Of a stretch of 64,000 bases of DNA, positions 1 to 45,764 are shown piece by piece. The first letter of the stretch is position 1; every line of letters starts with the position of its first letter. The stretch covers positions 8,315 through 72,314 of the forward strand of contig DATKNV010000013.1 in NCBI GenBank assembly GCA_035541215.1, in the 5' to 3' direction. The DNA is from Stellaceae bacterium. GTDB lineage: Bacteria > Pseudomonadota > Alphaproteobacteria > ATCC43930 > CGMCC-115725. The notes under the pieces are model-generated. The model ran no database searches. It had not been told where the DNA came from and worked only from the letters and a program-made list of their open reading frames with translations. The position numbers were made by a program, and so were the translations under genes.

Positions 1-122
1 CGGCCACCTATCCGTGTTAGGTTGATGCTTCAAGCCGCGCAATGTCGTCGCGGCGTCCGCACGACCCTCAGGAGCCCGGCTACGGAGCCGAATCGGGCTC
101 CGCCGGGCGCGGGAGAATAGGA

Positions 123-1301
123 ATGATTTGCGATCTTCCCTCTTTGCTTCAGCCGGCCGGCGAAGAGAAGTTCCTCGAGCATTTCATCGAGAAAAAAAGG
201 CTGCACGTCCGGGCGAGCGATCCGCAGCGGGCGGCGAGCCTCCTGCCCTGGACGACGGTCAACCACCTCATCGAATGCGACGTGCTTCCGCCCGACCGCA
301 TGCGAGTAATACGGGCGAACATTGATGTCGCGACCCTGATGTATCGCCGGCGCGACGAGCACAGGCATCTTCGCGCGGGCGCGCTGCAGCAGCTCCTTGC
401 GCAGGGAGCCAGCGTGATTATCAACGACGTCAGCGATCTCGTGCCGGAGATCGGGCGATTGAGCGACAACATCGAGCGCCGGCTCGCGCATCGCGTCGGC
501 GTCAACGCCTATCTCAGCTTCGGCCGCGGCAGCGCCTTCAAGGCGCATTTCGACTACCATGACGTGATCGTCCTGCAAATTCACGGCCGCAAGCGCTGGC
601 GGAGCCTCGGGACGCCCTTCCCCTTCCCCGTCGAGCAGCCCGGCGGGGAGCCGAGCAAGGAAGCGCCGACCGAAACCGTCTGGGAGGACGTGCTCGAGCC
701 CGGCGACGTTCTCTACCTGCCGCGCGGCGAAGTTCACGAGGCGGCCGTCGAGGGACCTCGTTCGGTGCACCTCACGATCGGCGTTCATGTTCGGCACGGG
801 ATCCACTTTCTCGAGTGGCTCGGCAAGCGGGCCGCGCTCGACCCGCAGCTTCGCATGGACCTCACGCGAGTGGCCGGCGAGGAAGCCCTGCGACGTCACG
901 AGGCGCTGCTGAAGCAGCGGCTCCATGCGCTCATCGATGGATCGAGCGTCGAGCAGTTTCTCGATGCCGAGGACATCGAGCGGCGCCCGCGCGTGTTGCT
1001 CAATATCGGCCTCGATGACCTCCCGGACGACGATACGCTCATTCTGCCGGCTCCGCGGCGCCACCTCTCGCATTCGGCCGATGGCGACCCGGAGCGGCCG
1101 ATCACCATCGGCGACGAACGGTACTCGCTTTCCACGCCTGCACGGCAGGCTTTGAGCCTGCTGCTTGCCAATAACGGCCTGACGTTCAACGAGCTTAGGG
1201 GCGCACTGGCCGCCCAAATGAATCTCGACCTCCTCCGCGAGGCCGTTCGCGAACTCGCGAGGAACGGGCTTGTCGGGCTCAATTCGGTCAAATCGCTTTG
1301 A
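123..1301 (+). CDS. JmjC/cupin-4 family Fe(II)/2-oxoglutarate oxygenase-like protein
   Basis: ORF 42..1301. HxD...H pattern (AHFDYHD ... VHLTIG) and the GDVLYLPRGEVH strand are typical of cupin-4/JmjC ribosomal-oxygenase-like proteins. ATG at 123 is preceded by GGGAGA; the upstream ATG at 42 is possible, so the start is uncertain. Confidence 0.7.
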   Translation: MICDLPSLLQPAGEEKFLEHFIEKKRLHVRASDPQRAASLLPWTTVNHLIECDVLPPDRMRVIRANIDVATLMYRRRDEHRHLRAGALQQLLAQGASVIINDVSDLVPEIGRLSDNIERRLAHRVGVNAYLSFGRGSAFKAHFDYHDVIVLQIHGRKRWRSLGTPFPFPVEQPGGEPSKEAPTETVWEDVLEPGDVLYLPRGEVHEAAVEGPRSVHLTIGVHVRHGIHFLEWLGKRAALDPQLRMDLTRVAGEEALRRHEALLKQRLHALIDGSSVEQFLDAEDIERRPRVLLNIGLDDLPDDDTLILPAPRRHLSHSADGDPERPITIGDERYSLSTPARQALSLLLANNGLTFNELRGALAAQMNLDLLREAVRELARNGLVGLNSVKSL

Positions 1302-1409
1302 CGCTCTCGCGGCGGACCGAGAGCTTTCCTGCCGGAGAAAACGGCAGAGCAAATCGGCTTCCTCTCGACGGACCTTGTCGCCGCAGCGGGGTGCGGCACT
1401 CGCAGCCGT

Positions 1410-2186
1410 TTATCGAGGCTCGCTCAACAGCGTCGAATTTCTCTTGCGCGGGTTACGACGAGACGCCAGAGCGAGACACGCAAGCGCCGCGCCCATCAGG
1501 ATAAAAGACGATGGCTCCGGCACCGTTAGAATCAGCTGGGTGTTTCCATCACCGGGAGTGGGAATAGGTACATAATCGGGAGGCACGGCCGGCGTTCCGG
1601 AATAGGCAAAGACATAGCGCTCATAGCCGCTGGTATCGGGCACACCGGGCAAGCTGCCGCCAAACGCGATCAGCCCACCGACCGCCGCATTCAAGTCCGC
1701 GATTCCGGTGCTGTTCAAGATGATATCGATGAACGAGCCGTCATTCGCGGCCGTCACCGTAAAACTGCCGACAACCGGGCCGGACGCGAGTCCGTCATAG
1801 GCATTCGGCACTGTGCCGCCGCCGTTCAGCGTCGTGACGGCGCTGCCATAGCCATAAACGTAGATCTGCAGGAGCTCGCTATCCGAACCGGGCAACGTCG
1901 CGAAGCCGGAGGCTGGCTCCCAAAGATGTAGCGTAGCGCTCGTTATGGTTCCGCTGACCCCCGAGAGGTCAAAACTAAAGAAATCGTGGTGCCCAGTTGT
2001 GGTTCCGCCATCTGGCCTCACGTTGGTCCCGACGATCTGGCCCGTAATGTAATTATCGTTCGTTGGATCGTAGAAATTGTCGTCCTCGTAATAACCGCGC
2101 TGAATGGTGTCGAGGACCATCGCACCGGCCGAAGGCGCCGAGACCACAGCAAAAAACGCAGCGCATAAAATCGTCCGCCAACGCAT
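1410..2186 (-). CDS. PEP-CTERM sorting-domain secreted protein
   Basis: C-terminus VPEPSSFILMGAALACLALASRRNPRKR (PEP motif, TM helix, basic tail) is a PEP-CTERM signal. A hydrophobic signal-like N-terminus follows the ATG at 2186; the alternative ATG is at 2213. Confidence 0.8.
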   Translation of the reverse strand: MRWRTILCAAFFAVVSAPSAGAMVLDTIQRGYYEDDNFYDPTNDNYITGQIVGTNVRPDGGTTTGHHDFFSFDLSGVSGTITSATLHLWEPASGFATLPGSDSELLQIYVYGYGSAVTTLNGGGTVPNAYDGLASGPVVGSFTVTAANDGSFIDIILNSTGIADLNAAVGGLIAFGGSLPGVPDTSGYERYVFAYSGTPAVPPDYVPIPTPGDGNTQLILTVPEPSSFILMGAALACLALASRRNPRKRNSTLLSEPR

Positions 2187-2319
2187 TACTTCGTCCCCAA
2201 TAAGACGGTGCAATGTTTAAATATTTTTGCATAATTCCCACCGCGATTCATGCACCATTCGTGGAGTTCTTCTGTTCCCCAGGCGTTGTCCGGAATAGGG
2301 ACCGCGATATATAAGATGG

Positions 2320-2331
2320 GTTTAGACGATT
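2320..2331 (+). repeat. 12-bp direct repeat GTTTAGACGATT, copy 1
   Basis: Exact 12-mer read in an AT-rich intergenic stretch. It recurs at 2508..2519. Confidence 0.3.
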
Positions 2332-2507
2332 AATCATTAACGGCGCTCTGCCAGAGAGCACGCTTGAATTCGTGTGGAAAACCGGACCTTTCTTCCATCT
2401 CCTTGCGTTTCTCTTCACCGAATTTGGGAACCCTGCCGCCGATGATCGGCACCGACATTCCCTGTTACGTCCGACGCACAATCTCGAGCCCCGGACGTTG
2501 GGAGCGA

Positions 2508-2519
2508 GTTTAGACGATT
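2508..2519 (+). repeat. 12-bp direct repeat GTTTAGACGATT, copy 2
   Basis: Exact copy of 2320..2331. It abuts a possible -35 (TTGCTG 2518..2523) and -10 (TATGCT 2542..2547) upstream of the candidate precursor ORF. Confidence 0.3.
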
Positions 2520-2606
2520 GCTGCGCATCTCCCCGCGCCGTTATGCTATTTTTACTGTGTGCGTGGCAGGTTTTCGCTGGGGATTCCCTCATGGAGATGC
2601 TCACCG

Positions 2607-2792
2607 ATGCAGTCCGGTAATTCGACCGAGAATCGTCGGGGAACGACGCCGGTTGACGATGTGTCGCGGCCGCCCGCGCGCAAGCCGTGGCATGCGCCCG
2701 TACTCAAAGAGCTCGACATCGCCCTGACCGCCGATGATCGAGGGCACCAACCTCACGACGGCAAAGCGGGCAACGACAAAGATCACTCCTGA
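2607..2792 (+). CDS. candidate RiPP precursor peptide (61 aa; alternative GTG start at 2661 gives 43 aa)
   Basis: In-frame ATG at 2607 with GGAG 10 nt upstream. The peptide contains WHAPVLKELDIALTA, resembling the lasso-leader YxxPxL...Tx recognition motif, followed by the hydrophilic tail DDRGHQPHDGKAGNDKDHS ending in Ser. It is convergent with the HprK-like kinase gene. GC3 is only moderate by hand count. Confidence 0.35.
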   Translation: MQSGNSTENRRGTTPVDDVSRPPARKPWHAPVLKELDIALTADDRGHQPHDGKAGNDKDHS

Positions 2793-2840
2793 GTCCCGTG
2801 ACCGGCCGGCCATGGGCTGTGTGCCGTTGCGGATCGGTCC

Positions 2841-3746
2841 TCAAGTGCGCACGACATCGGACTCGACGAGCGCGGCCAGCTCGTCGACCCGCGTCACGCC
2901 GGAGCGGCGGAACAGACGGCGGACCTCGAGGCCCGACAGAGCTTCCCCGAGCTTTCTGAACAGGGCGGGCTTGCTGTAGAGAATTCGAGCGATCTCGGAG
3001 CGGTATATTTCGGCGCCCAGGCGCTCGAAAACCTCGATCCCGCGGACGTCCGCGATTCTCTCGGGGGTCGCGCGCGGCGCGTCCTCCATCAGGTAGACGC
3101 GCCGCAGCCGAATGGGGGTCGCATCGAACGCGGCGGGTGCCGCGAGAAGATACTTGCCCTCGCCGAACCCGAGCCGAGGGAGCCCCTCCGATGCGATGCC
3201 AAGCGCCTTGAGACTGGCCGATCCGAGCTTCAGAGTGGGAAAGGTCGGCAGCGCCCTGGATTCGTCGTCCGCGCGAAGAACGGGACAGATGTCGTCGGTG
3301 ACGAGAGCGTGACCGCGCCGGATCAGAGCCGCGGCAAGCGTCGATTTACCCGCTCCGGCAGTGCCCGCAATGGCGATCGCATGGGAGCCGATCCGGACGG
3401 CGCTCGCGTGCAGCGGCAGCGTCCCCCGGAGATAGCAAAGAAGCCCGAGAATCGGGCCTAGCAGGAATACCCGCCATTCCGGCGCTTCCGCGGGCAGGCG
3501 AGAGTCCACGATGACGGTCTCGGCCGTGACCAGGAAGCGCGCGTGCGGCCGAGCGTCGTAAAGTATCGCGCCGCCGGGCATCGCTTCGATACGGCGCGGA
3601 GAAGCCGCATTCGTCGCGTCCGGCCCGACGACGGACCCTCGGCGGATTTCTATATCGGGCGCCCGGTCCGGCCCCTCCCAAGGCACGGCCTCGGGCAAAG
3701 GGAGATCGGAACGGACTCGCCAGGTGCAAAGCGTGCGATCAATCAT
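2841..3746 (-). CDS. HprK-related kinase (HPr kinase C-terminal-domain-like)
   Basis: P-loop GTAGAGKST followed by LVTDD, with overall HPr kinase/phosphorylase-like layout. ATG at 3746. This family is typically found next to PqqD-like and nucleotidyltransferase genes. Confidence 0.8.
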   Translation of the reverse strand: MIDRTLCTWRVRSDLPLPEAVPWEGPDRAPDIEIRRGSVVGPDATNAASPRRIEAMPGGAILYDARPHARFLVTAETVIVDSRLPAEAPEWRVFLLGPILGLLCYLRGTLPLHASAVRIGSHAIAIAGTAGAGKSTLAAALIRRGHALVTDDICPVLRADDESRALPTFPTLKLGSASLKALGIASEGLPRLGFGEGKYLLAAPAAFDATPIRLRRVYLMEDAPRATPERIADVRGIEVFERLGAEIYRSEIARILYSKPALFRKLGEALSGLEVRRLFRRSGVTRVDELAALVESDVVRT

Positions 3747-3773
3747 TGCACTGTGGCGCGGCCGCAGCCCCGA

Positions 3774-4217
3774 TCACGCCCTGAACGCCGCGATGGGTGT
3801 GAATTCGGCGGCGGTCTCGGTCCCGATCACGTCGATGTCGCCGCAGCGCAGCCAGGCGTGAGCGGCGAGCCCAACGGCGCCTTCCGGCCGCGCTCCGAGC
3901 TCGAGCACCGAAGGCAAGCCGAGGCGCCGCAGCATCATGCGGCCCGCAATCGCGCGCACCAGACAGCTCGACGTCCAGGGCAAGCGGTTGGCGGCCCGCA
4001 GGAGCGCACGGCCCACGCCGAGTGCCGCCTCACGCTCGGCAGGGCCCAGCGCGATTTCAGGCCGGTCGAGCTGCGACGCGGTTCGGCCGATCAAGGGAGC
4101 GATGGTCCGGAACGGCAGCAGCAGCATGGCGCGCGCGAGGCCGAGGGAAAGGACGGCCTCAAGGAGCGCTCTACGCTCCGCTGGCGTAAGGGCCGAGAAT
4201 TTCTTCAGCAGCGTCAT
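3774..4217 (-). CDS. lasso-peptide B2-type transglutaminase-like cysteine protease
   Basis: SSCL ... AHAWL ... GDIDV matches the Cys-His-Asp arrangement of McjB-C-terminal/B2 leader peptidases. ATG at 4217 is preferred over TTG at 4232. Confidence 0.8.
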   Translation of the reverse strand: MTLLKKFSALTPAERRALLEAVLSLGLARAMLLLPFRTIAPLIGRTASQLDRPEIALGPAEREAALGVGRALLRAANRLPWTSSCLVRAIAGRMMLRRLGLPSVLELGARPEGAVGLAAHAWLRCGDIDVIGTETAAEFTPIAAFRA

Positions 4218-4601
4218 GCCGACGACCTTCAACGATGATCCGCAGCAGCCGGGCCCGGCGAACGGAACATTGAACCCTTCCCATGGTTAACAATTTCCGC
4301 GGCGGCGCCGCCCCACGCATTTCTCTTGCGGCCCTTGAGCCCTCCCGGCGGGCGGGAGTAGGTGGAGCCGGACCGCAGCACTCTCGGCGCGTCGGGCTCG
4401 GAGCCGACCTTATCAGGCCGGCCCTGGGCGGTCGAGCAAGCCGCGCCGCACCCGGCCGGAAAGCAGCCAGACTCGGATCCTCTATAATTAATACGCCTCC
4501 GGCGCTCGCCGGCGCGAACGAACACAGATAGCGGACGATCGGCAGGCTGGGATCGAATTAGACTGGCGGCGTCTCGGCCCGCGAACGACACGGAGGCGCG
4601 C

Positions 4602-5696
4602 TTGTCGGAGGAAGGAATAGAGGCGCTCGTTCGAAAATTCCGATCCGCTGTGCGATCCAAGCCCGATTATCCCAAGCGCCTGCTCGAGCTCGCGGCGGTG
4701 GTGGCGCAGAAGCAAGGGCTGCTGCCGGCTTTCGAGCTCTGCGAGGAGGCTGTTGCAGAAAGCAACGGCGATCCCGAGATCGAAACGCGGGCGCGGCGAA
4801 TCGCCAGCAGACTCGTGGCTCCCTACCACGTGCGCATGATGAACGATGCCACGCGCAGCGCTGCCTGGGATCGCGCGATCAGGCGAGCGATCCGGCCGGG
4901 GGCGCACGTGCTGGAGATCGGAACCGGCGGAGGCATACTCGCGATGATGGCGGCGCGAGCGGGTGCCGGGCGGGTGACGACCTGCGAGCGCGATCCGATA
5001 TTGGCCCATCTCGCGCGAGAGATCGTAGCGCTGAATGGATACGCCGATCGCATCAGGGTCATTGCCAAGCGCTCGGAAGACCTCGCCGTCGGCGTCGATC
5101 TCGAGCGCCCGGCCGAGCTGGTATTCGGCGATATCTTCGGGACGGACCTCTTGAACTTCGAGCCTCTGCGGGCAATCGCCGATGCGCGCCGCCGCTTGCT
5201 TGTGCCCGAGGCAAGATCCGTGCCGTCGGCCGCCACGATAAGCCTGGCGCTCGCGCATTGGCGAGGATACCCGCAGGTGGCGCAGATCGGCCGCGCCGCC
5301 GGCTTCGATGTCACGCCGTTCCGGCGCGTCCTGCCGTCGGATTTCACCCTGGGGCTCGACGATCCCGATCTCACCCTGCGATCGGCCGCGGCCGTGGCTT
5401 TCCGCTTCGACTTCGGCGCGCTCGCGGCGCCCGAGGCCGGCCGCACCACGCTGCTCCTCGAGGCCGGCTCGGACGGAGACGTAAATGGCATTGTCCAGTG
5501 GATCAACCTGCAGCTCGACGACGATACCGCGCTAGAGACGCGGCCGGCGGAGGGCGCGCGATACTTCATGGGATGCCGCTTCTATCCGCTGCGAGCCCCG
5601 CTCGACCTGCGCGAGGGCGAGAAGCTCAGAATTGGGGCGGCACACGATGGAAGGCGGCCGATCGTTTGGCCATACGGGCGCGCGGACGACGTCTAA
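4602..5696 (+). CDS. class I SAM-dependent methyltransferase, protein arginine methyltransferase-like
   Basis: VLEIGTGGGILAMMAARAGAGRVTTCE SAM-binding motif plus the downstream PRMT-like layout (NGYADRIRVI..SEDL). TTG start at 4602 has GGAGG 6 nt upstream. Confidence 0.75.
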   Translation: MSEEGIEALVRKFRSAVRSKPDYPKRLLELAAVVAQKQGLLPAFELCEEAVAESNGDPEIETRARRIASRLVAPYHVRMMNDATRSAAWDRAIRRAIRPGAHVLEIGTGGGILAMMAARAGAGRVTTCERDPILAHLAREIVALNGYADRIRVIAKRSEDLAVGVDLERPAELVFGDIFGTDLLNFEPLRAIADARRRLLVPEARSVPSAATISLALAHWRGYPQVAQIGRAAGFDVTPFRRVLPSDFTLGLDDPDLTLRSAAAVAFRFDFGALAAPEAGRTTLLLEAGSDGDVNGIVQWINLQLDDDTALETRPAEGARYFMGCRFYPLRAPLDLREGEKLRIGAAHDGRRPIVWPYGRADDV

Positions 5697-5980
5697 TGTG
5701 TCGCGGATACCAGCCCCGCCGCGACGAGCCTTTCCAGCAGCGCCAGCACATCGCGCTCGATGATCGCCCGGTCGGCGTCGTATCTAGCGGCCAGCGCGTC
5801 GCAGAGCGCGTCGACGCGTATGGGGCTGCCGAGGCGCTCCCAGATGTCGCTGCCGATATCGTCGAGACCGAAATAGCTTCCGCGCTCGACGCTGAGGATA
5901 ATGACCTCGTCATCGACCGTTGCTGCGATCTGATCCTCGCTGCGCCGCACCATCGAATTGGGGGAAAGAGTCGCGGTCAT
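5693..5980 (-). CDS. PqqD-family protein (RiPP recognition element / lasso B1-like)
   Basis: 95-aa product with VDDEVIILS..GSYFGLDDIGSDIWERL ... ERDVLALLERLVAAGLV, a typical PqqD/RRE fold signature. ATG at 5980. The 3' end overlaps the methyltransferase stop by 4 nt. Confidence 0.85.
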   Translation of the reverse strand: MTATLSPNSMVRRSEDQIAATVDDEVIILSVERGSYFGLDDIGSDIWERLGSPIRVDALCDALAARYDADRAIIERDVLALLERLVAAGLVSATH

Positions 5981-6061
5981 GTGGCCTGATTGGTACCCAT
6001 CTCGCCTTGCCGGCAGTGTTCGAAGCCCTGCGAATTTAGCCCACGCGCTCGTTAAGCAACA

Positions 6062-7276
6062 ATGAAAGGATTCGAGGGCGTTCCCCCTCTCTTCGACCCG
6101 GAGCTGCGGTTCCTGCTGGCTTGCCTGCGGCGGCAATTGGCTGGCGCCGAACCCCAAGACGCGCCGTTGGTGGCGGAGCCGATCGACTGGGAGCGGTTTG
6201 CCAAATGGGTCGAACGGCACGGTGTGGCACCCCTCACTTTTGCGGCACTCCGGCAGGCGGGCGAATCGATGATTCCGTCGGCAGCGAGCGCCCGCCTGCG
6301 AGACGCGGCTGCGCGCAATACGCGCCTCGTTTTGCTGCAGATCGCAGAGGCGCGGCGGCTCGTCGATATCCTCGCGCGCGCGGGAATCCGCTCGATGGTC
6401 GTCAAGGGGCCGGTGCTGGCGATGTTGGCCTTCGGGGATCCCGCCCGACGCGTGAGCCGTGACATCGACCTCCTGGTCGATCCCGAGCGGGTGGTCGAGG
6501 CGGATCGGCTGGTCGCCGGCGCGGGCTACAGGCGCGTCGATCCGAATTTCGAGCTCACCCCGCGCCAATTCGATCGCTATCGCCGCGTGCGCTGCCAATT
6601 CGGGTATCGGGCCGCGCGCGACGATCTGCGCGTGGAGCTGCACTGGCGCCTCACCTCGAACCCGCTGCTATTGGCCTTCGACGAGGCGGACCTCTGGAGG
6701 AGACTCTCGCCGATCTGCGTCGCCGGCACCGAATTCGCGACGCTTCCGGAGAAGGAGTTGCTCCTCTACCTCTGCGTCCACGGCAGCGCCCACGTCTGGT
6801 TTCGCCTGAAATGGCTTGCGGATATCGCCGCGCTGTTGCGACAGATGAAGGCGGACAAGCTCGAAAGCATTGCCGCACTCAGCCGGGCGCTCGACGTCGA
6901 GCGTCCGTTTCATCAGGCGCTGATCCTCGCGCACCGGCTGTTGGGGGCCGCCCTCCCCGCGCCCATTCTTTCCGCGGCGGAGACGGATCGGGCCGCACAG
7001 CGAATGGTTGCAGCCGCGCTGAAAGCGATCGCCTGGCACGGCTCGCCCGAAGAGCCGGCATCGACGCGCTGGTTCAATGCCTGGATTAGTTGGCAGGCCT
7101 ATCGGCTGAAGCCGGGGTGGCGCTATCGCTGGGCCGAATTCAAGGACCAGGCCGCCGCGCCGGAGGATTGGGCGCGCATTCCCCTGCCGGAGTCCCTTGC
7201 CTTCCTCTATTTCCCGCTGCGCCCGCTGTCGTGGCTCGCGCGAAAGCTGGCGCCCGGGCTCCTCCGCGACCGCTGA
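6062..7276 (+). CDS. nucleotidyltransferase family protein (NTP_transf_5-like)
   Basis: VVKGPVLA...RVSRDIDLLVDPE motif and ~400 aa size match the uncharacterised nucleotidyltransferase family that co-occurs with HprK-like kinase and PqqD genes. Confidence 0.75.
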   Translation: MKGFEGVPPLFDPELRFLLACLRRQLAGAEPQDAPLVAEPIDWERFAKWVERHGVAPLTFAALRQAGESMIPSAASARLRDAAARNTRLVLLQIAEARRLVDILARAGIRSMVVKGPVLAMLAFGDPARRVSRDIDLLVDPERVVEADRLVAGAGYRRVDPNFELTPRQFDRYRRVRCQFGYRAARDDLRVELHWRLTSNPLLLAFDEADLWRRLSPICVAGTEFATLPEKELLLYLCVHGSAHVWFRLKWLADIAALLRQMKADKLESIAALSRALDVERPFHQALILAHRLLGAALPAPILSAAETDRAAQRMVAAALKAIAWHGSPEEPASTRWFNAWISWQAYRLKPGWRYRWAEFKDQAAAPEDWARIPLPESLAFLYFPLRPLSWLARKLAPGLLRDR

Positions 7277-9124
7277 TCAGGGCAAGGCGTCGCTCGCCTC
7301 CAGGAGCGCCCTGAAGCGCCCCTCCCTATCGCGGTTGAGCTCGTCCCAGGTTCCGAATTGCAGAAGCGCTCCCGCCTCGAGCACGAATATGCAATCGGCC
7401 CGGCGAATGGTGGACAAGCGGTGCGCGATGATCACGATCGTCCGCGAGCCGTGGAGCCGGTCGATCGCGCCTTGGACCGCGCGCTCGGTCTCGCTGTCGA
7501 GCGCGCTCGTGGCCTCGTCGAGGACCAGAAGCGTAGGGCGATGCAGGAGCGCGCGCGCGAGGGCTAAGCGCTGGCGCTCGCCGCCGGAGAGCCGAATGCC
7601 GCGCTCGCCGATCGGGGTGTCGAGGCCCCGGGGCAGCGCGGCCACGAACCCGTCGGCCGATGCCGCCGCGAGCGCCTCCGCCATCTCGCTCTCGCTCGCG
7701 TCGGGAGCGGCCCAGAGCAGGTTTTGCCGCACGGTGTCGTTGAAGAGAAAGCCGTCCTGCGGCACGTAGCCTACGCTTCGCCGCCAACGCGCGAGCATGT
7801 CGCCGTCGAGGGGCGCGCCGTCGAGGAGGATTCTTCCCTCGCTCGGCTTGACCAATCCGAGCAGCAGGTCGGCGAGCGTGCTCTTGCCGGCGCCCGTGCG
7901 TCCGACGATCGCCACCGTGGTGCCCGCACGGATCTCGAGGTCGAGGTTGCGAAGCGCGGATGAGCCACCGGCATCGCCGTAGCGAAACCCGACGCCCGAC
8001 AGCTTGATCCCCTGCCGAAGCTCGAGGCTCTCCCCCTTCCCGGAGGATGGCTCCGCCGCCGCGAGGCAACGCTCCTGCAGCCGCGCGAGAGAGTCGAAGA
8101 CGGGCAGCATCTGCGCCACCGCCTGCCAGCCGCTCTGGAGCTCCAGGGCAAGGGGCGTTAGCCGCGAGAAGATCACCACCATGACCAGCACGCTCGCCGT
8201 AGAGAGCGTCGCAAGATCCGCCGCGATGTAGACGAAGGCGCCGAGCGTCAGTGCCGCGACGATCTGGACCGCCAGTCGCGCCGCGATCGAGCTCCGGCTC
8301 AGGCTCGCGGTCTCGGCACTTTGACGCGCTACTGCCGCATCGAAGGCCGCGATGTGCCGGGCCTCGGCAGCGTGGCTCTTGGCAAGCTTGAGGGCGTGGA
8401 GAAAGTCGCTGATCTCCGCAAACGCCGCCTGACGGGCGGTCACGAGCCGCTCGCCCCGCCTGTAGCCGCTTCCGAAGCACCGCTGAAATACTGGGATGAG
8501 GAAAGCGCCCCAGCAGAGCACGGCGAGTGTGAGGAGCGGTGAGAGGACGAACGCGACGGCCAATTGGGCTGCGCCCAGCAGTGTCACGGCTGGGATTCGA
8601 AGAAAGAAATAGGTGCCCCGGTCGATCTGTCCGATTTGGGCGGTGACGGCCTCCAGCAACTCCGAGAAGCGCTGGCGCATCAGAAACGGCCAGCTCGCGC
8701 CGGCGATCCCCCGATAAATCTCGCTGCGCCGCCGGTCGACGAAGTCGAGCTCGAGCTGCGCGAGCACGCGGTCGCGCCAGGCGAGGAGCGCCGCGCGAAG
8801 CACGACGAGCCCGATGAATGCGGCGAGCAGCGCCGGGAGTGAGAGCGGCAATCCCGCCGCGGCGAAGGCCGCGCCTACCGCACCGGCGATGCGCCCGCTG
8901 TCGGCTGCGACATCGCCCAACAAGGCCACCAGCGGCACCAGCAGCGTAAGGCCGATACCCTCCGTGGCCGCCGAGATCAGGACCAGGAGCCCTGCCCCCG
9001 CGAGCCTCGGCATGCCTATCGCATCGACGAAGGCACGGGCGAATTCGCCGAGGCGCGCAAGGACGAAACCCACTCCCCGCGCCGACTCCGATCGCGGCGA
9101 TTCACGCTCGAATGCAGGCTTCAT
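7277..9124 (-). CDS. ABC transporter, fused permease/ATPase (exporter type)
   Basis: Walker A GRTGAGKST, signature LSGGERQR and Walker B LLVLDEATS follow an N-terminal six-helix-like hydrophobic domain. ATG at 9124; the longer ORF start at 9247 was rejected. Confidence 0.85.
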   Translation of the reverse strand: MKPAFERESPRSESARGVGFVLARLGEFARAFVDAIGMPRLAGAGLLVLISAATEGIGLTLLVPLVALLGDVAADSGRIAGAVGAAFAAAGLPLSLPALLAAFIGLVVLRAALLAWRDRVLAQLELDFVDRRRSEIYRGIAGASWPFLMRQRFSELLEAVTAQIGQIDRGTYFFLRIPAVTLLGAAQLAVAFVLSPLLTLAVLCWGAFLIPVFQRCFGSGYRRGERLVTARQAAFAEISDFLHALKLAKSHAAEARHIAAFDAAVARQSAETASLSRSSIAARLAVQIVAALTLGAFVYIAADLATLSTASVLVMVVIFSRLTPLALELQSGWQAVAQMLPVFDSLARLQERCLAAAEPSSGKGESLELRQGIKLSGVGFRYGDAGGSSALRNLDLEIRAGTTVAIVGRTGAGKSTLADLLLGLVKPSEGRILLDGAPLDGDMLARWRRSVGYVPQDGFLFNDTVRQNLLWAAPDASESEMAEALAAASADGFVAALPRGLDTPIGERGIRLSGGERQRLALARALLHRPTLLVLDEATSALDSETERAVQGAIDRLHGSRTIVIIAHRLSTIRRADCIFVLEAGALLQFGTWDELNRDREGRFRALLEASDALP

Positions 9125-9336
9125 CGCTCTCAAGCTAGCAGAAGTGCCGCTCGTCCGCGATGCGCTCGACGGTGCGCGAGGTGAAACCGTCGGGCCTCGT
9201 CGCCAAGCATCTTGAATGCCCGGCCGATATTGCACCGTAGTGCGCACTCGGCGGCCAGGAGCCGCACTCTCGCGAGCCTTGGCCTAGAGCTCGGTTGCGA
9301 TGTCTCGAAGAGCCGGCGACGATTGACATCGATCAC

Positions 9337-10284
9337 TCAGTGGCGGCCATAGAAGCGACCGATCGCACTTGCAATGCCGAGGGAGAATCGCGCGACGATC
9401 CTCCTCCGCCTCGACATGACCGGGATCGGCACTCTGACATTGCGCCAATAGAGCTTATGCGCCATATCCGGCCGATACCCCGAGAGCGCGTCGATGAAAT
9501 ACCGGCGTCGCCACGGCTTGGCCCGGCTCACGGCGTGCGACATGACGTAGCCACCCGGCGTGAAGTCCATGCTCGCACCGTCTAATGCGGAGACGGGAAA
9601 TTCTGTCGCCATGAACGCCACGTTGAGCATGTCCTGGTCGGGAAACGCGACCGGGCTGGGGCGGGTACCGTGAGCAAGCTGGGCAAGCGGGACGCCGGAG
9701 CGCTCTATCTGTGCAATCAATGCCTGCCAAATCTCGAGAAGCTCCACCCTGTCCGCAGTCAAACCAAGGAATCCGGCATTGAAATATCCCTCGAGAGGCC
9801 GGCACTCGAAGCCGAGCTCGCCCGCGATCCGCCGCCAATGTTGGCGTAGGGGATGAGTGGCGAGCATTCGAGGTTCGTTGACGTCTGCGCAGACGGCAAT
9901 GCCGCAGGAGACCCATTCCTGGAAAAACTGCCAGGGCGCCTTCACGACGATATCGACGTCGAAGTAAAAGATGCGCCGCGCGCCACTCGCGTCGCGCCGT
10001 AAAATCGAAAGCATGAACGCAGGCTTGTAATTTGTGAGATGGCCCTCGAATTCAATCTTGACGAAGCGAATTACGCACCCCGCGCCCAAATCGTATTCGT
10101 GGTATGGCGGTACCGCGCGTGCAGAGGTCGCCCATGCCGGCAGACGATCCCTGTATCCCGCATAAATCATGCCGGCGAAGCCGGCATTGAATAACGAATT
10201 TACCAGCGCACCGAATCCGAGATGATAGTCGCCATCGAACAATACAAACACTACATCGTCGACCGGTGTCTCTGGTGTGCTCAT
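9337..10284 (-). CDS. GT8-like glycosyltransferase
   Basis: FYFDVDIVV (DxD), YFNAGFLGL and PDQDMLN motifs resemble GT8 family signatures. ATG at 10284. Confidence 0.6.
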   Translation of the reverse strand: MSTPETPVDDVVFVLFDGDYHLGFGALVNSLFNAGFAGMIYAGYRDRLPAWATSARAVPPYHEYDLGAGCVIRFVKIEFEGHLTNYKPAFMLSILRRDASGARRIFYFDVDIVVKAPWQFFQEWVSCGIAVCADVNEPRMLATHPLRQHWRRIAGELGFECRPLEGYFNAGFLGLTADRVELLEIWQALIAQIERSGVPLAQLAHGTRPSPVAFPDQDMLNVAFMATEFPVSALDGASMDFTPGGYVMSHAVSRAKPWRRRYFIDALSGYRPDMAHKLYWRNVRVPIPVMSRRRRIVARFSLGIASAIGRFYGRH

Positions 10285-10490
10285 GCTCTTGCGTCCTCGA
10301 ACGCTCCATTCTGCGCAATTCTTGGCATATGCCTTCGCGGACACCGAAGCGGTAACGGAGACTCAATCGCCGCACCCCGATCGCGGTACGCCGCCGCGAA
10401 ACGCATGTGCGACGCGCAAGCTTGGTGATGACCACGAGATTCTGCCATGCTCAGATTGGAACTACCGAGCGAAATGGACGCTGCGAGCCC

Positions 10491-11300
10491 ATGCCAGAGA
10501 CTAGTCGCCTCCGTCGCTTATTCACCGGCTCCCGGGCCGATCGCGCGATCGCGTTTCGTGCGCTGAAGAGACAAATCGGCGGCATCCTTCTATTTCGAAT
10601 TCTCGGCGGGATCGTCAACCGGGCCAACTCCCCGTTCCTCGTCACTTACAGGCCGGATTTCGACTACGACTTCCGTCGATTTCCCCAATACCGTACACTC
10701 TACGAGACATGGGGAGCTGGGGGCCAGTTCGAGAATCGCGGCGACATCGGCCGCCTCAATCTACTTTGCCTCAATCTGATGCAAGTCTTGCGCGAGGGCG
10801 TGCCCGGCGACGCCGTCGAAGTGGGGGTTTACAAGGGCAACACGGCGAAAGTTCTGAAGGAGCTGCTTCGAGGGACGGGTCGCAGGCTCTTTCTATTCGA
10901 TACTTTTGCCGGCTTCGATCGTTCGGACATCGCCGGCGTGGACGCGCACGTAACGCACACCGGCTTTGCGGATACCTCGCTGGATTCGGTTCGCGACTTC
11001 GTCGGGAGCGACGACACGATATTCGTCCCTGGATATTTCCCCGATAGCGCAAGGGGCGCTGCGCTTCCGCAGACGGTCGCCGTTTTGCACATCGACTGCG
11101 ATCTCTACGCCCCCATGAAAGCGGCCCTCGAGATGTTCTATCCGCGTATGCAACGGGGTGCGTTGATCGTGCTGCACGATTATGCGTCCGGACATTGGCC
11201 GGGCGCCACGCAGGCGATCGACCAGTTCTTCTCCGACAAGGCCGAGACGGTCGTGATAATGCCGGACAAATCCGGCACCGCCGTCGTGCGCAAAGTCTGA
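10491..11300 (+). CDS. TylF/MycF-family class I SAM-dependent O-methyltransferase-like protein
   Basis: VEVGVYKGNTAKVL ... LFDTFAGF ... LHIDCDLY ... ALIVLHDY resembles the macrocin-O-methyltransferase-like family. ATG at 10491. Confidence 0.75.
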   Translation: MPETSRLRRLFTGSRADRAIAFRALKRQIGGILLFRILGGIVNRANSPFLVTYRPDFDYDFRRFPQYRTLYETWGAGGQFENRGDIGRLNLLCLNLMQVLREGVPGDAVEVGVYKGNTAKVLKELLRGTGRRLFLFDTFAGFDRSDIAGVDAHVTHTGFADTSLDSVRDFVGSDDTIFVPGYFPDSARGAALPQTVAVLHIDCDLYAPMKAALEMFYPRMQRGALIVLHDYASGHWPGATQAIDQFFSDKAETVVIMPDKSGTAVVRKV

Positions 11301-11329
11301 CGCCGATCCCCGGCTCATGCGCCGACCGA

Positions 11330-13075
11330 TCACGTGCGCCGCAGAATGAAATTCCCGATCGCCAGCACATCCATCTCGGTTCTGAGGAAGCAATCGAGCG
11401 CCTCCTCCGGGCGGCACACGATGGGCTCGTTCTCGTTGAAGGAGGTGTTGAGCACGATCGGCACGCCCGTGATGTCGCGGAACGCCGAGATCGCGCGATG
11501 GTATCTCGGATTGGCTCCGGCGGTGACGGTCTGTAGCCGGCCCGAGCCGTCCACGTGCGTCACCGCCGGGATTTGCGCGCGGCGCTCCGGGCGGATCTGA
11601 AACACCTTCATCATGAAGGGAACGTCGTCGTCGGTCTCGAACCACTCGCCGACGCTTTCGCGCAGGATCGCGGGCGCAAAGGGCCGGAAGGACTCCCGGC
11701 GCTTGATCTTGAGATTGAGGATGTCCTTCATGTCCGCCCGGCGGGGATCGCCGAGGATCGAGCGATTGCCGAGCGCGCGCGGTCCCCACTCCATCCGGCC
11801 CTGGAACCAGCCGATCACCTTGCCTTCCGCGATCCCCGAAGCGACCTCGCGGCAATAGGCTACCTCGTCATCGATGCGCCGCAGCGCGATCGAGCGCTCT
11901 CCGGCCGATGCAAGACCCGCGGATAGGACGCGCTCGATCTCCGCGTCCGAGTATTCCGGCCCCCAGGAGGCATGCTCCATTACGAAGCTGCGGCGCCCTC
12001 CCGCGACTTCGTGCCAGGTATCGAATGCCGCGCCTACCGCGCCGCCGGCATCGCCCGCCGCAGCCTGGATGTAGCAGCTCTCGAACGGCGTCTCCCGGTG
12101 GATCTTGCCGTTCGCGACGGAGTTGAAGGCGCAGCCCCCCGCCAGCACGAGGCGCGGCAGCCGATAACGCTCATGGAGACGGCTCAGCAGGTTGAAGAAC
12201 GCCTCCTCATAGAGGCGCTGGACCGACCGGGCGATGTCCTTGTGGCGCTGTTCCAGCGGGGCATCCGGCTCGCGCCGCGGCCCCAGCAATCGCTCCAATT
12301 CGTCGCCGGCGAGACGGCCGGAGCTCGGCGCGCAGTCGTTCCATTCATAAAGACGGCGCTCCCGGTGGAAGCGGAAGTAACGGAGATCGAGACGGAAGGT
12401 TCCGTCGCGCCGCAAATCGACGATCTCGCGGAGCTTGCCGAGATAGGCGGGCTCGCCATAGGGAGCGAGGCCCATCACCTTGTATTCGTCGCCGTAATGA
12501 GGAAATCCCAGGTGCTGGGTCATGGCCTCGTAGAAGATGCCGAGGGAATGCGGGAACGGCACGCGTCCGTGAATCTCGACCTGCGTGCCCTTGCCCAGAC
12601 CCCAAGCGGCGCTTGCGAAATCGCCTGAGCCATCGACCGAGACCGCAACCGCCTCGTCGAACGGCGAAACGTAGAAGGCGGAAGCCAAATGCGCGCGATG
12701 ATGCTCGACGTGGCGTATCGAGGCGCGCAAGGCGGCGCCGGGGAAGCAACGCCGGAACTCGTCCTCGATGGAAGCCCAGCGCGCTGCGTGGCGCATCCGG
12801 TCGATGACAAAGCGGGGGGCCGGGCGCTGGCGGAGAGTGAACAGCGCCTTACGCCAGAGATTGGCACGGGGATCGCGGTTGATGGCGACATGATCGACGT
12901 CGGCGAGCGCAATCCCGGCCGCCTCTAGGCAATATTTAATGGCGAGCTCCGGGAACCCCGCCCAATGCTTAACGCGCCGAAACCGCTCCTCTTCCGCCGC
13001 CGCCGACAGCATACCATCGCGCAGGATGCACGCCGACGAGTCGGCGTGGTAAGCGTTAAGACCGAGGATGTACAA
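11330..13075 (-). CDS. carbamoyltransferase (NodU/CmcH family)
   Basis: N-terminus MYILGLNAYHADSSACILRDG...EEERFRRVKH and ~580 aa length are characteristic of NodU/CmcH carbamoyltransferases. Confidence 0.9.
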   Translation of the reverse strand: MYILGLNAYHADSSACILRDGMLSAAAEEERFRRVKHWAGFPELAIKYCLEAAGIALADVDHVAINRDPRANLWRKALFTLRQRPAPRFVIDRMRHAARWASIEDEFRRCFPGAALRASIRHVEHHRAHLASAFYVSPFDEAVAVSVDGSGDFASAAWGLGKGTQVEIHGRVPFPHSLGIFYEAMTQHLGFPHYGDEYKVMGLAPYGEPAYLGKLREIVDLRRDGTFRLDLRYFRFHRERRLYEWNDCAPSSGRLAGDELERLLGPRREPDAPLEQRHKDIARSVQRLYEEAFFNLLSRLHERYRLPRLVLAGGCAFNSVANGKIHRETPFESCYIQAAAGDAGGAVGAAFDTWHEVAGGRRSFVMEHASWGPEYSDAEIERVLSAGLASAGERSIALRRIDDEVAYCREVASGIAEGKVIGWFQGRMEWGPRALGNRSILGDPRRADMKDILNLKIKRRESFRPFAPAILRESVGEWFETDDDVPFMMKVFQIRPERRAQIPAVTHVDGSGRLQTVTAGANPRYHRAISAFRDITGVPIVLNTSFNENEPIVCRPEEALDCFLRTEMDVLAIGNFILRRT

Positions 13076-13234
13076 GAGGCTGACCTCCCCAATATCGCGA
13101 CACTAACATGTCATGAGCACTTTCTTGGTTCTGTTCTTTCGAGCGTCGAACGATCGCGAGAAGCAGCGGAGAAATCGCTCGGAACCGGATGGGTCGCCGG
13201 CGCTCTCGCCCAAGCAAGCAATGCGTCGCGTCGC

Positions 13235-14410
13235 ATGAACATCTTGTGGCTGCCGCATGCCCCGCTGCGAACGGGCCGCACGCGGAGCGATCATTTGATC
13301 GAGAGGCTCGCGGGCCGCCATCGCGTCACCGTCGTGAGTTTCCGCACCCATGCGCGAGCGCATGCATGGCGGTATCTCGGCGACCTCTTCAGTCATCGTT
13401 CCCGCTACGGCGCCACTTACGCCGAGCTTGCGGTTTGCCGATTTCCGAGGGCGACCTCGCTGAACGGCTGGCTGCTCAATCGGGCAATCCGGCGAGAGCT
13501 CGGCCGAGTCCGCCAAGACGTCCTCGTCGTCGCACCGGCCCCCTATCTCACGGGATATCTCGATTTCGCGGCACTACGGGGAAAAATTCCCGTCGTCTGC
13601 GACTATCTCGATGGCGGCGATTGGACGCAGACGCCCGAGGTCACTGAATTCGAGCGCCGGTACATCGCCGCTGCCGATGCCGTAATGTGCGTCTCAAAGG
13701 GACTTTTGCGTCAGGCCTCATCGCTGAACCCGCGCTCGTTCTACGTCCCGAACGGGGTCGAGCTCGATCGCTACCGGACCTTTCGCGCCTCGCACTCGGT
13801 CCGGGAGTGCAAGACGCGGCTGGGCATCGACCCCGACGCATTCGTCGTCTCGATCATCGGAATGACCTGCAGCCCGCGGCTCTATTTCGTGGACGCGATA
13901 GTCGAGCTCGCGAGCAAAGGCAGGAACGTCGTTCTCCTGCTCGTGGGAGACAGTCCGCTCCTGGAGGAAATTCGAAGCCGAGCGGGCGGCGCGAGCCGAG
14001 CGGTCCGTATCGCCGGACCAATTCCCTACGCGGAGATCATGCCCTACTTCATGGCAACGGATCTCGGTCTCTCCGCCGTCGACGAGCATCCCTACTATCA
14101 CTTCCAGTCGCCCCTGAAGATCTTCGAGTACGGCGCCATGGGAAAGCCGGTGCTGGCCTCGCCGCGTGTCGAGGAAGTCGCGGAAACGGCCTTGTCTCAC
14201 GTGCAGTTCTGCGAGGCCGACGCCGAAAGCCTGGCGCGCCACATAGAACGGGCAATGACCGCTGCGGCGCCTGCGCCGGAGCCGGATTTGGAGCGCTATG
14301 ATTGGGATCGCATCGCGCGGACGGTCGAGGAGATTCTCATGGACACGGCCCAGCGATACGCCTCCGAGGCGCCGGGACCCGCCGGGATGCCGGCCGGCCG
14401 AATGCCGTGA
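13235..14410 (+). CDS. glycosyltransferase family 4 (GT-B)
   Basis: C-terminal EYGAMGKPVLAS-type GT1/GT4 motif. ATG at 13235 (MNILWLPH...). Confidence 0.8.
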   Translation: MNILWLPHAPLRTGRTRSDHLIERLAGRHRVTVVSFRTHARAHAWRYLGDLFSHRSRYGATYAELAVCRFPRATSLNGWLLNRAIRRELGRVRQDVLVVAPAPYLTGYLDFAALRGKIPVVCDYLDGGDWTQTPEVTEFERRYIAAADAVMCVSKGLLRQASSLNPRSFYVPNGVELDRYRTFRASHSVRECKTRLGIDPDAFVVSIIGMTCSPRLYFVDAIVELASKGRNVVLLLVGDSPLLEEIRSRAGGASRAVRIAGPIPYAEIMPYFMATDLGLSAVDEHPYYHFQSPLKIFEYGAMGKPVLASPRVEEVAETALSHVQFCEADAESLARHIERAMTAAAPAPEPDLERYDWDRIARTVEEILMDTAQRYASEAPGPAGMPAGRMP

Positions 14411-18296: not shown

Positions 18297-18312
18297 CGGG
18301 GAGCCACCCAAA

Positions 18313-30366: not shown

Positions 30367-30511
30367 TGCTGCCAGGCGCGCCGAGGGAGAAGGCGCAGTA
30401 GCAGCCGTCGAACTCGCAATGTGCACGATAAATGCTCCCCGACCTCTCGACCCGACAATCCTCTAACCTCATGGTTAATACTATAACAACGAGGCGGATT
30501 GACCCGGCACT

Positions 30512-36387: not shown

Positions 36388-36992
36388 CGACGTGGGCTCG
36401 ATTGGGCTCCCCGATGCGTGCGCCAAAGCGACGCGTCTTGCCGGCCGCCCCCCAACTCGCCGACGGAGGAACCGGCTTCGAGCCAACGGAGGTTCCGGCG
36501 AAGCGTCGCCGCACAGATTGCCCACTATTGTGGAAAATTCTTTAAACGGCCTATCCGTACAAAAGAGGCAGATGCCCGCACAGCACGCGGCGCGGGCCTT
36601 GAGCTCGTCCAAAGGAAGTGGGAGCCGGCCCTCCCCGGTGTCGATCCGGCCGTCGCAGATCCCTTCAATTGCGCGATTTTCAGCGTGAATTTCCTGAGAG
36701 TGGCGCGGACCGGTGTCGGTCTTCTGGACCCCGCGAGGTCGGGATCGTGGTTAAGGGACTAGTCAGAAATGGAGAGCTATTGCCCATGCGCCGGATCGTC
36801 GCATCTCCTCGAAATGATGGGCTCCGGTCGCGCCGCGTCCGATGCGCTCCTCTACGGATTTCCGAAGGAGCGCTTCGCGAAGCCGCGCAAGAGCCTTCGC
36901 GGGCTCGCGGCACGGGGGGGTGCGGCTTCTCGCGGGCCGGCCGAAAGACCTCGTCCGGGCCATCACGAGCTTCTTCGGCCTTTGATACGCGC

Positions 36993-43056: not shown

Positions 43057-43066
43057 CTCCGCCCCC

Positions 43067-45739: not shown

Positions 45740-45764
45740 GCATTTCGCGCCGAGAACCTTGCGA

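Follow-up and report, generated by a model that had tools for sequence, protein, structure and literature searches.

The closest described systems to the gene cluster considered here are the paeninodin cluster of Paenibacillus dendritiformis (padeA, C, B1, B2, D and K) and the SyanK cluster of Sphingobium yanoikuyae (PMC8498205, PMC9266682). Kinases of the PadeK type phosphorylate, and can polyphosphorylate, the C-terminal serine of the linear lasso precursor, with SyanK as the proteobacterial example, and PsmN of the pseudomycoidin system adds one or two hexoses to the resulting phosphoserine (PMC9266682, PMC8498205). Here we describe a locus at the start of a 64-kb stretch of contig DATKNV010000013.1 (the window; coordinates below are window positions), from an uncultured Stellaceae-like soil alphaproteobacterium. 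A sequence-only reading of the window had listed a kinase, a B2 protease, a PqqD-family protein, a methyltransferase, a nucleotidyltransferase and an ABC exporter, and had proposed a cassette for a peptide made by the ribosome and altered after translation (RiPP) that operates without a lasso cyclase. We hold with considerable confidence that the locus is a complete split-B, kinase-type (paeninodin/pseudomycoidin-like) lasso cluster, the cyclase gene of which lies just beyond the window edge.

A putative lasso cyclase is encoded just upstream of the window

A lookup with the exact kinase sequence retrieved five public metagenome contigs. The longest of these (L001, ena:ERZ27256510:k141_4010470; 83 kb) matches positions 1-13746 of the window in reverse complement with 19 mismatches. 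Contig L174 is 100% identical to positions 1-2326 and runs 195 nucleotides (nt) further upstream, where it encodes the final 57 residues of a gene that stops 19 nt before position 1, on the same strand as the JmjC oxygenase gene that opens the window. The overlapping contigs carrying this upstream gene are 99.86-100% identical to the window. A tblastn search with its product returned no Asn-synthetase or cyclase homologue anywhere within the 64-kb window; the earlier statement that no cyclase is in view was thus literally correct, as was its caveat that one might lie beyond the edge.

The best NCBIfam match of the upstream protein was NF033535, the lasso isopeptide-forming cyclase (311 bits, E 1e-92), as against 160 bits for Asn synthase and a partial match of 141 bits to the XrtA amidotransferase (TIGR03108). 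Because its N-terminus reads MTAIAG, the protein is without the Cys2 nucleophile of glutamine-hydrolysing enzymes. Cyclases from further kinase-type lasso loci, those of Firmicutes among them, likewise begin M[ST]AIAG. The PP-loop SGGLDS is kept, with G265, D267 and S268 invariant. A sequence search against solved structures could not discriminate the identity of the protein, because the matches consisted of AsnB-type and hydroxyamidotransferase chains only, with no lasso cyclase among them. The best model match, the absent Cys2 and the retained PP-loop together point to the 645-residue gene product as the lasso cyclase.

A precursor of the kinase-associated lasso class

The short open reading frame (ORF) between the oxygenase and kinase genes is a called gene on all five public contigs, with GGAG placed 10 nt 5' of the ATG. 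It encodes the leader MQSGNSTENRRGTTPVDDVSRPPARKPWHAPVLKELDIALTA followed by the core DDRGHQPHDGKAGNDKDHS. The leader ends WHAPVLKELDIALT-A and the core begins DDRGHQPHD, placing a threonine at position -2, an aspartate at core position 9 and a serine at the C-terminus. As had been proposed for a kinase-type lasso system, the precursor therefore ends in the residue on which such a kinase acts. The leader motif WHAPxLKxLDxxLT-A is common to paeninodin-type precursors.

In the precursors of the relatives described below, the leader block (K/R)xWHAPxLKxLDxxLT-x recurs and is followed by cores of 16-20 residues: DNRGHAPHDGKAGNDKDHS in L086, GNRRNSNDPPVGQSHHLNS in L087, SGGTPIPDDNYGDHRHS in L089, AGLHSHAAVDAQHARS in L006, GNARTSNEPPTGQNQFGGAS in L095 and GNKRNSNDAPTSQNLFLNS in L097-99. 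An Asp or Glu stands at core position 8 or 9 in most of them (L086, L087, L089, L095-99); in L006 the first acidic residue, counted by the Thr(-2) rule, is at position 10. All precursors of the window clade end in Ser (DHS, DHS, LNS, RHS, ARS and GAS). Leaders of the form W/Y-x-x-P-x-L...(L/M)-T-x and a terminal Ser are also found in paeninodin-like precursors of Paenibacillus and Robertmurraya (loci L022, L054 and L058), for example in L022 with leader MKKEWKAPQLEELNVSMTM and core AGPGIKTPDAVQPDPD...HYS. In a wider scan of kinase-anchored loci most recovered precursors were Ser-ended, which is no test of the terminal residue because only Ser-ending ORFs were retained. Relative to L086 the precursor gene has a dN/dS of 0.15, and only two core residues differ. 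These features mark the ORF as a kinase-class lasso precursor, the sole oddity of which is its predicted Asp1. A 42-residue ORF at ~2330-2458 (-), called on some contigs, was set aside, the gene call being its sole support.

A fusion that is odd for a RiPP precursor was seen in another, distant locus: in L110 (~5365-5772, +) the apparent lasso precursor is 135 residues long, with a classical leader (YQRPTLTEYGSVAAIT-G) and, at its C-terminus, a domain of the Peptidase_S74 family (endosialidase intramolecular chaperone), which scored 23.1 bits for a cutoff of 22.

Accessory genes of the cluster

Six-frame ORFs and profile searches placed the accessory genes listed by the sequence-only reading, all intact, at the positions given there or no more than a few codons away, and the profile scores upheld each family assignment (kinase, B2, PqqD, PRMT-like, NTP_transf_5 and ABC exporter), with hidden Markov model matches at E 1e-9 to 1e-56 (Table 1). 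Together with the conserved synteny in relatives, these matches are not due to chance. The unusual 3' junctions reported for the locus are also real: the methyltransferase and PqqD genes converge with a 4-nt overlap at 5693-5696, and the nucleotidyltransferase and exporter genes abut at 7276/7277.

Table 1 Features of the lasso cluster and of its surroundings. Negative positions lie upstream of the window.
Feature	Position	Strand	Remarks
Putative lasso cyclase (C)	~-1956 to -19, off-window	+	645 aa; GATase_6/7 and Asn_synthase domains
Spacer, cyclase-JmjC	1..122	+	between cyclase gene and JmjC gene
JmjC_2 (ribosomal-oxygenase-type) Fe(II)/2-oxoglutarate oxygenase	123..1301	+	PF08007 82.5 bits
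PEP-CTERM sorting-signal protein	1410..2186	-	PF07589/TIGR02595 at residues 230-254; between JmjC and precursor
Putative lasso precursor (A)	2607..2792	+	61 aa; 42-aa leader and 19-aa core (predicted)
HprK-like lasso precursor kinase (K), predicted	2841..3746	-	PF07475 35.9 bits (cutoff 33.3); P-loop GTAGAGKST
Lasso B2 leader peptidase (transglutaminase-like Cys protease), predicted	3774..4217	-	NF033537 82.2 bits (cutoff 33); PF13471 87.4 bits
PRMT-like SAM-dependent methyltransferase	4602..5696	+	PF06325; annotated PrmA
PqqD-family RiPP recognition element (B1), predicted leader-binding chaperone	5693..5980	-	95 aa; PF05402 72.7 bits (cutoff 23.4)
NTP_transf_5 nucleotidyltransferase-fold protein (N)	6062..7276	+	PF14907 191 bits
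ABC exporter (D), permease and ATPase fused	7277..9073	-	598 aa by public gene call; PF00005 121 bits
315-aa ORF	9337-10284	-	upstream of ABC exporter and co-directional with it
TylF-type O-methyltransferase	10491-11300	+	Pfam
NodU/CmcH-type carbamoyltransferase	11330-13075	-	Pfam
Polysacc_synt flippase	17001-18353		exopolysaccharide locus
Wzy_C polymerase	22013-23458		exopolysaccharide locus
Wzz/GNVR chain-length protein	26042-28261		exopolysaccharide locus
BBP2_2 outer-membrane barrel (porin)	28963-30426		exopolysaccharide locus
Bac_transf priming transferase	34819-36612		exopolysaccharide locus

Across 28 homologues of the kinase, H113, K134 and D152 never vary, and D151 shows at least 90% conservation. 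These residues agree with the His-Lys-Asp-Asp motif reported as essential in lasso kinases of the PadeK type (PMC9266682), and by analogy with those enzymes the predicted activity of the kinase is phosphorylation of the precursor at its C-terminal Ser. Searches of solved structures matched the P-loop segments of HprK only. Relatives of the kinase, like those of the methyltransferase, are mostly alphaproteobacterial. The catalytic residues previously assigned to the B2 protease were confirmed, C85 and H120 being invariant in 16 homologues and followed by Asp127/129.

Homologues of the N protein with 26-53% identity occur in both proteobacterial and Firmicutes kinase-type lasso loci, and the protein is predicted to decorate the phosphoserine in the manner of PsmN. 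The exporter gave full-length matches of the MsbA/HepA type and has homologues of 35-40% identity in paeninodin-type loci; an end of the gene at 9124 corresponds to an alternative in-frame ATG. A second ABC exporter is encoded elsewhere in the window (45759-47720, +), its ATPase half being 31% identical to the lasso ABC protein.

Conservation of the cluster in relatives

A kinase profile was used to fetch 80 genome loci with up to 10 kb of flank per side. In 63 of the 80 a cyclase homologue was present within 10 kb of the kinase, and most of the loci also held homologues of B2, PqqD, NTP_transf_5 and the ABC exporter. The closest genome relative, L006, has a kinase 51% identical to that of the window (cyclase 56%, B2 59%, PqqD 64% and nucleotidyltransferase 53%). 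Among metagenomic relatives, kinase identity was 73% for L086, 51% for L089 and 49% for L087/88, the latter from a Stellaceae metagenome-assembled genome. Cyclase, precursor, kinase, B2 and PqqD genes are kept in all of these, and the JmjC gene in L086, L089 and L087/88. In these three, a unit of Asn_synthase, JmjC_2 and small precursor genes faces the kinase and B2 genes. NTP_transf_5 was found in L087/88, L089 and L006 and the ABC exporter in L087/88; the contig of L086 ends beside its PqqD gene.

The layout of L087 explains the odd gene orientations of the window. There, PqqD, TPR-GT41, 2-oxoglutarate (2OG) oxygenase, B2 and kinase genes form one co-directional unit, convergent with a unit of cyclase, JmjC and precursor genes. 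In the lineage of the window, an oppositely oriented PRMT-like gene stands in place of the two middle genes of this unit. In L087/L088 (6874-9400) a TPR/GT41 (O-GlcNAc-transferase-like) gene and a 2OG-FeII_Oxy_3 gene hold the slot taken by the PRMT-like gene in the window, and tailoring genes at this position appear to be swapped in and out. A second 2OG oxygenase gene lies beside the cyclase gene in L087/L088.

Compared with L086, the cyclase, JmjC, precursor, kinase, B2 and methyltransferase genes gave dN/dS values of 0.15-0.27, and the cluster is therefore being maintained under purifying selection. Every gene of the cluster, the cyclase included, is present, intact, conserved and syntenic, and a lasso-type precursor is present with them.

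Several observations weigh against the assignment of the locus as a complete lasso cluster. The cyclase score of 311 bits lies below the curated NF033535 cutoff of 525, and the gene is outside the window, so that it is assigned to the genome of the window by way of overlapping contigs, some identical and some near-identical. The best NCBIfam match of the PqqD protein, lasso_PqqD_Bac, scored 66.6 bits against a cutoff of 80. Lasso cores normally begin with Gly, Ala, Ser or Cys; the Asp predicted at position 1 is unusual, and it depends on a cleavage site assumed on the strength of the Thr(-2) rule. The genes alternate in orientation, the cluster is interrupted by a PEP-CTERM gene that seems unrelated to it, and a scan of positions 1-10500 returned 0 promoter-like sites, with terminator-like sites at the number expected from shuffled sequence.

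In three Bacteroidales/Rikenellaceae loci (L013, L014 and L020), kinase, B2, PqqD and NTP_transf_5 genes occur without a cyclase detectable by tblastn in up to 20 kb of sequence. Cyclase-less cassettes of the kind first proposed for the window may thus exist in Bacteroidales.

A JmjC oxygenase and a PRMT-like methyltransferase as candidate tailoring enzymes

The public gene call for the JmjC protein starts at 123, and the longest ORF is 419 residues. NCBI lists a protein 100% identical to it under a Stellaceae bacterium metagenome-assembled genome. The iron-binding triad HxD...H (H142, D144 and H216) is invariant. A Foldseek comparison of the AlphaFold model (pLDDT 90.7) found NO66, MINA53 and YcfD to be the closest solved structures over the full length (E 2e-20 to 1e-14), and the protein has the ribosomal oxygenase (ROX) architecture of JmjC, dimerisation and C-terminal domains. 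NO66 and MINA53 hydroxylate histidine, and YcfD hydroxylates arginine. In the model the C-terminal domain looks like a RiPP recognition element (RRE). A survey of RREs reported RRE-like domains fused to PF08007, with bacterial homologues in RiPP-like contexts (PMC12710340).

The JmjC gene lies directly downstream of the cyclase gene in L086 and L087, and a 49-residue ORF separates the two in L089. Among metagenome relatives of at least 35% identity with usable flank, lasso genes were found at ~15 of 19 JmjC loci. In L110 a single co-directional operon holds JmjC, cyclase, precursor, methyltransferase homologue, kinase, PqqD and B2 genes. Judged by this synteny, the substrate of the JmjC enzyme is probably the lasso precursor and not a ribosomal protein. 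An Arg occupies position 3 or 4 in most JmjC-linked cores, L089 being without it. The core alignments do not assign the target residue; Arg3 or a His would be the most likely. No description of a JmjC enzyme of the ribosomal-oxygenase type as a lasso tailoring enzyme was found in the literature searched.

One further locus combines genes of these families. L091 (12766-20175) is lasso-like: alongside Asn_synthase and PqqD it has JmjC_2, a sulfotransferase and a pair of ScmC/HprK-like kinases, and both a PEP-CTERM protein and a PRMT-like gene are found within 8 kb.

The methyltransferase matched PRMT7 (E 4e-28), PRMT9 and PRMT1 (to 6e-12) best among solved structures, over residues 31-306. Its motif I, VLEIGTGGG, aligned, indicating a class I S-adenosylmethionine (SAM)-binding fold with PRMT-specific similarity. 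The double-E loop of TbPRMT7, SEIFGTMMLGE, aligns with GDIFGTDLLNFE. Two findings weaken the case for this enzyme. The aligned loop has Asp in place of the first Glu, with the second Glu shifted by one residue, and because the loop is imperfect the substrate specificity is uncertain. Moreover, Sphingomonas has family members of 43-48% identity that are not part of lasso loci (L090 and L092); the possibility that the PRMT-like family is lasso-specific was ruled out by these standalone copies. Homologues do, nevertheless, occur within co-directional lasso operons (L110 and L023), and the gene holds the same position in L086 with a dN/dS of 0.21. The methyltransferase is thus a candidate tailoring enzyme, with weaker evidence of cluster membership than the JmjC enzyme. 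The literature searched held no description of a PRMT-like enzyme as a lasso tailoring enzyme.

The strongest competing explanation is that the locus is a plain phosphorylated, possibly glycosylated, lasso cluster in which the PRMT-like gene, and perhaps the JmjC gene, are bystanders whose products act on cellular substrates such as ribosomal proteins. In its favour, the methyltransferase homologues of L090 and L092 sit in unrelated neighbourhoods, the closest genome relative L006 has neither gene, other genes occupy the place of the methyltransferase in L087, the JmjC protein has ribosomal oxygenases as its structural relatives, and the cluster demonstrably tolerates a passenger in the PEP-CTERM gene. 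Set against this are the position of the JmjC gene next to the cyclase gene in relatives and the lasso partners of most informative JmjC homologues; the single operon of L110, which holds both JmjC and a methyltransferase homologue; and the reported association of JmjC-RRE proteins with RiPP-like contexts (PMC12710340). The methyltransferase gene, for its part, has B2 on one side and B1 on the other, overlaps by 4 nt at its 3' end and keeps this place in L086, and most JmjC-associated cores offer an Arg at position 3 or 4. On balance we consider the bystander explanation unlikely, albeit worth keeping in view.

Inserted and flanking genes

The PEP-CTERM gene lies in a stretch of lower GC content (0.56-0.58 versus 0.66-0.70). 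It is found at the same place in the 72-73% relatives L086 and L094 (45% amino acid identity, dN/dS 0.31) and is absent from L087, L089 and L006; it is probably a passenger inserted between the JmjC and precursor genes.

Beyond the exporter, the 315-residue ORF had no match in Pfam, NCBIfam or solved structures, a faint hint of GT8 (E 0.22) excepted. A homologue of the carbamoyltransferase flanks the cluster in L087 (69%), and in L116 (32%) one sits between N and JmjC; in L047, unrelated genes stand between the homologue and the cluster. It is possible that the segment 9337-13075 is an extension of the cluster that tailors a phospho-linked sugar, or that it is the start of the neighbouring exopolysaccharide (EPS) locus. 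This latter locus, of the Wzx/Wzy type, occupies 13235-36612 and includes several GT4 and GT2 glycosyltransferases in addition to the genes of Table 1. Further along, a protein with TPR-S and adenylate/guanylate cyclase domains is encoded at 41284-43200 (-).

Discussion

The alternative with which the analysis began, a cyclase-less kinase/PqqD/B2/nucleotidyltransferase cassette akin to the HPr-rel-A system and yielding a linear, leader-cleaved, phosphorylated or decorated peptide, is now highly improbable. It could draw on the window itself, which is without an Asn-synthetase homologue, on the Bacteroidales loci in which the same four families seem to occur with no detectable cyclase, and on Asp1, an unusual N-terminus for a lasso peptide. 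It fails because, as the sequence-only reading had itself named for its refutation, a gene resembling lasso cyclases lies immediately upstream, terminating 19 nt before position 1 on contigs that are 99.9-100% identical to the window, and the proposal of a linear product falls with it. The cyclase gene is, in addition, syntenic with the cassette in all close relatives, and the acidic core residue at position 8/9 is kept, as a macrolactam needs. Membership of the HPr-rel-A system, which had been suggested for this set of genes, was ruled out by both of its models: the kinase scored 33.2 bits against the TIGR04352 cutoff of 200, over the P-loop segment only, and the PqqD protein 17.3 bits against the TIGR04353 cutoff of 35, lasso PqqD models scoring far higher.

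Least credible of all is the identification of the upstream gene as the XrtA-associated amidotransferase of a neighbouring PEP-CTERM/EPS system: the window does encode a PEP-CTERM protein, along with a large EPS locus of the Wzx/Wzy type (~13-36 kb), and TIGR03108 does match in part, but its 141 bits compare with a cutoff of 817 and with 311 bits for the lasso cyclase model, the Cys2 needed for glutamine hydrolysis is missing, the gene accompanies kinase, B2, PqqD and precursor genes in relatives devoid of EPS genes (such as L006 and L089), and the cassette stands between it and the EPS locus, so that this identity, too, was ruled out by scores, residues and synteny.

With the locus read as a lasso cluster, its chemistry can be predicted throughout from that of characterised homologues. 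The PqqD/B1 protein, to judge by its family, would bind the 61-residue precursor through the leader motif WHAPxLKxLDxxLT-A. Following the precedent of PadeK, ThcoK and SyanK, and given the conserved C-terminal Ser, the HprK-like kinase would phosphorylate the hydroxyl of Ser19 on the linear peptide, after which the NTP_transf_5 protein would extend the phosphate, with hexose if PsmN is the guide. Fold and synteny suggest that the JmjC enzyme, with an RRE-like C-terminal domain of its own, would hydroxylate a core side chain, most likely that of Arg3 or a His. The PRMT-like enzyme may N-methylate Arg3, the weakest step of the scheme. The JmjC enzyme, and possibly the methyltransferase, would act in a leader-dependent manner. 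B2 would then cut after Thr(-2)-Ala(-1), and the cyclase would adenylate Asp9 and join it to the alpha-amine of the new Asp1, giving a macrolactam of nine residues threaded by a 10-residue tail, for export by the ABC transporter. The monoisotopic masses calculated for these species are 2084.901 for the linear core and 2066.890 for the lasso form (loss of H2O), rising with each successive addition to 2146.857 (phosphate), 2308.909 (hexose), 2324.904 (oxygen) and 2338.920 (methyl).

On this basis we tentatively suggest that the Stellaceae clade may make a multiply tailored lasso peptide, in which Arg or His hydroxylation by the JmjC enzyme with its RRE-like domain and, in the lineage of the window, PRMT-type Arg N-methylation would be combined with an Asp1-Asp9 macrolactam and a phosphorylated or phosphoglycosylated terminal Ser, the sugar perhaps being O-methylated and carbamoylated by the TylF- and NodU-type gene products. 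Although this fuller proposal has somewhat less than even chances in our estimation, side-chain hydroxylation and Arg N-methylation would, if it is true, be modifications not yet described for lasso peptides.

The main outcome of the analysis is a correction, in that a seemingly cyclase-less RiPP system proved to be an artefact of the window edge, and no new RiPP class is opened. What is new is limited to the accessory tailoring genes (JmjC and PRMT-like), the unusual Asp1 and the split gene organisation. For genome mining, the locus defines a sub-family of kinase-type lasso clusters that recurs in soil alphaproteobacteria and pairs the cyclase with a ROX/JmjC oxygenase having an RRE-like domain. 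It also offers a concrete candidate for PRMT-type methylation of a RiPP in bacteria, and a small, highly charged core of 19 residues that is directly testable by heterologous expression.

The cluster shares with the paeninodin and SyanK clusters the split B1 and B2 genes, an Asn-synthetase-like cyclase, an ABC exporter, a kinase homologous to HprK with the His-Lys-Asp-Asp residues, a precursor leader of the form W/Y-x-x-P-x-L...T-x and an obligatory C-terminal Ser, and a search with the window kinase brought up homologous loci in Paenibacillus, Cohnella and Robertmurraya. It departs from these two clusters in that kinase identity to the Firmicutes loci is 26-37% only, in that its genes form convergent and divergent units as opposed to a single operon, and in that the predicted core begins with Asp and not with Ala or Gly. 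The JmjC and PRMT-like genes and the PEP-CTERM insertion are additional. As in the pseudomycoidin cluster of Bacillus pseudomycoides (psmK and psmN), the kinase is paired with a nucleotidyltransferase of the NTP_transf_5 type; unlike that cluster, the present one is proteobacterial and has additional oxygenase and methyltransferase genes, and the function of its N protein is predicted.

Canucin A is hydroxylated by CanE, an Fe/2OG lasso hydroxylase. BpmG and PbsQ are JmjC/cupin hydroxylases of biphenomycin-type RiPPs (PMC12257519). Like these three, the window enzyme is an Fe(II)/2OG oxygenase of a RiPP cluster, and its expected role would be side-chain hydroxylation of the precursor in its linear form; in contrast to them, it is a ribosomal-oxygenase-type JmjC_2 protein with the NO66/MINA53/YcfD fold and an RRE-like domain of its own.

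Among lasso methyltransferases, StspM and the lassomycin enzyme O-methylate the C-terminal carboxyl group, whereas the PIMT-type enzymes of cellulonodin-2 and lihuanodin (LihM) form aspartimide. The window likewise has a SAM-dependent methyltransferase gene within a lasso cluster, but its product is PRMT-like and of neither the O-methyltransferase nor the PIMT type, and Arg N-methylation is therefore the expected chemistry. Finally, the HPr-rel-A system (TIGR04352 kinase and TIGR04353 PqqD_rel_X) resembles the cluster in setting an HprK-like kinase beside a small PqqD-family protein, and is distinguished from it by the lasso cyclase, B2 protease and lasso precursor predicted for the window cluster.

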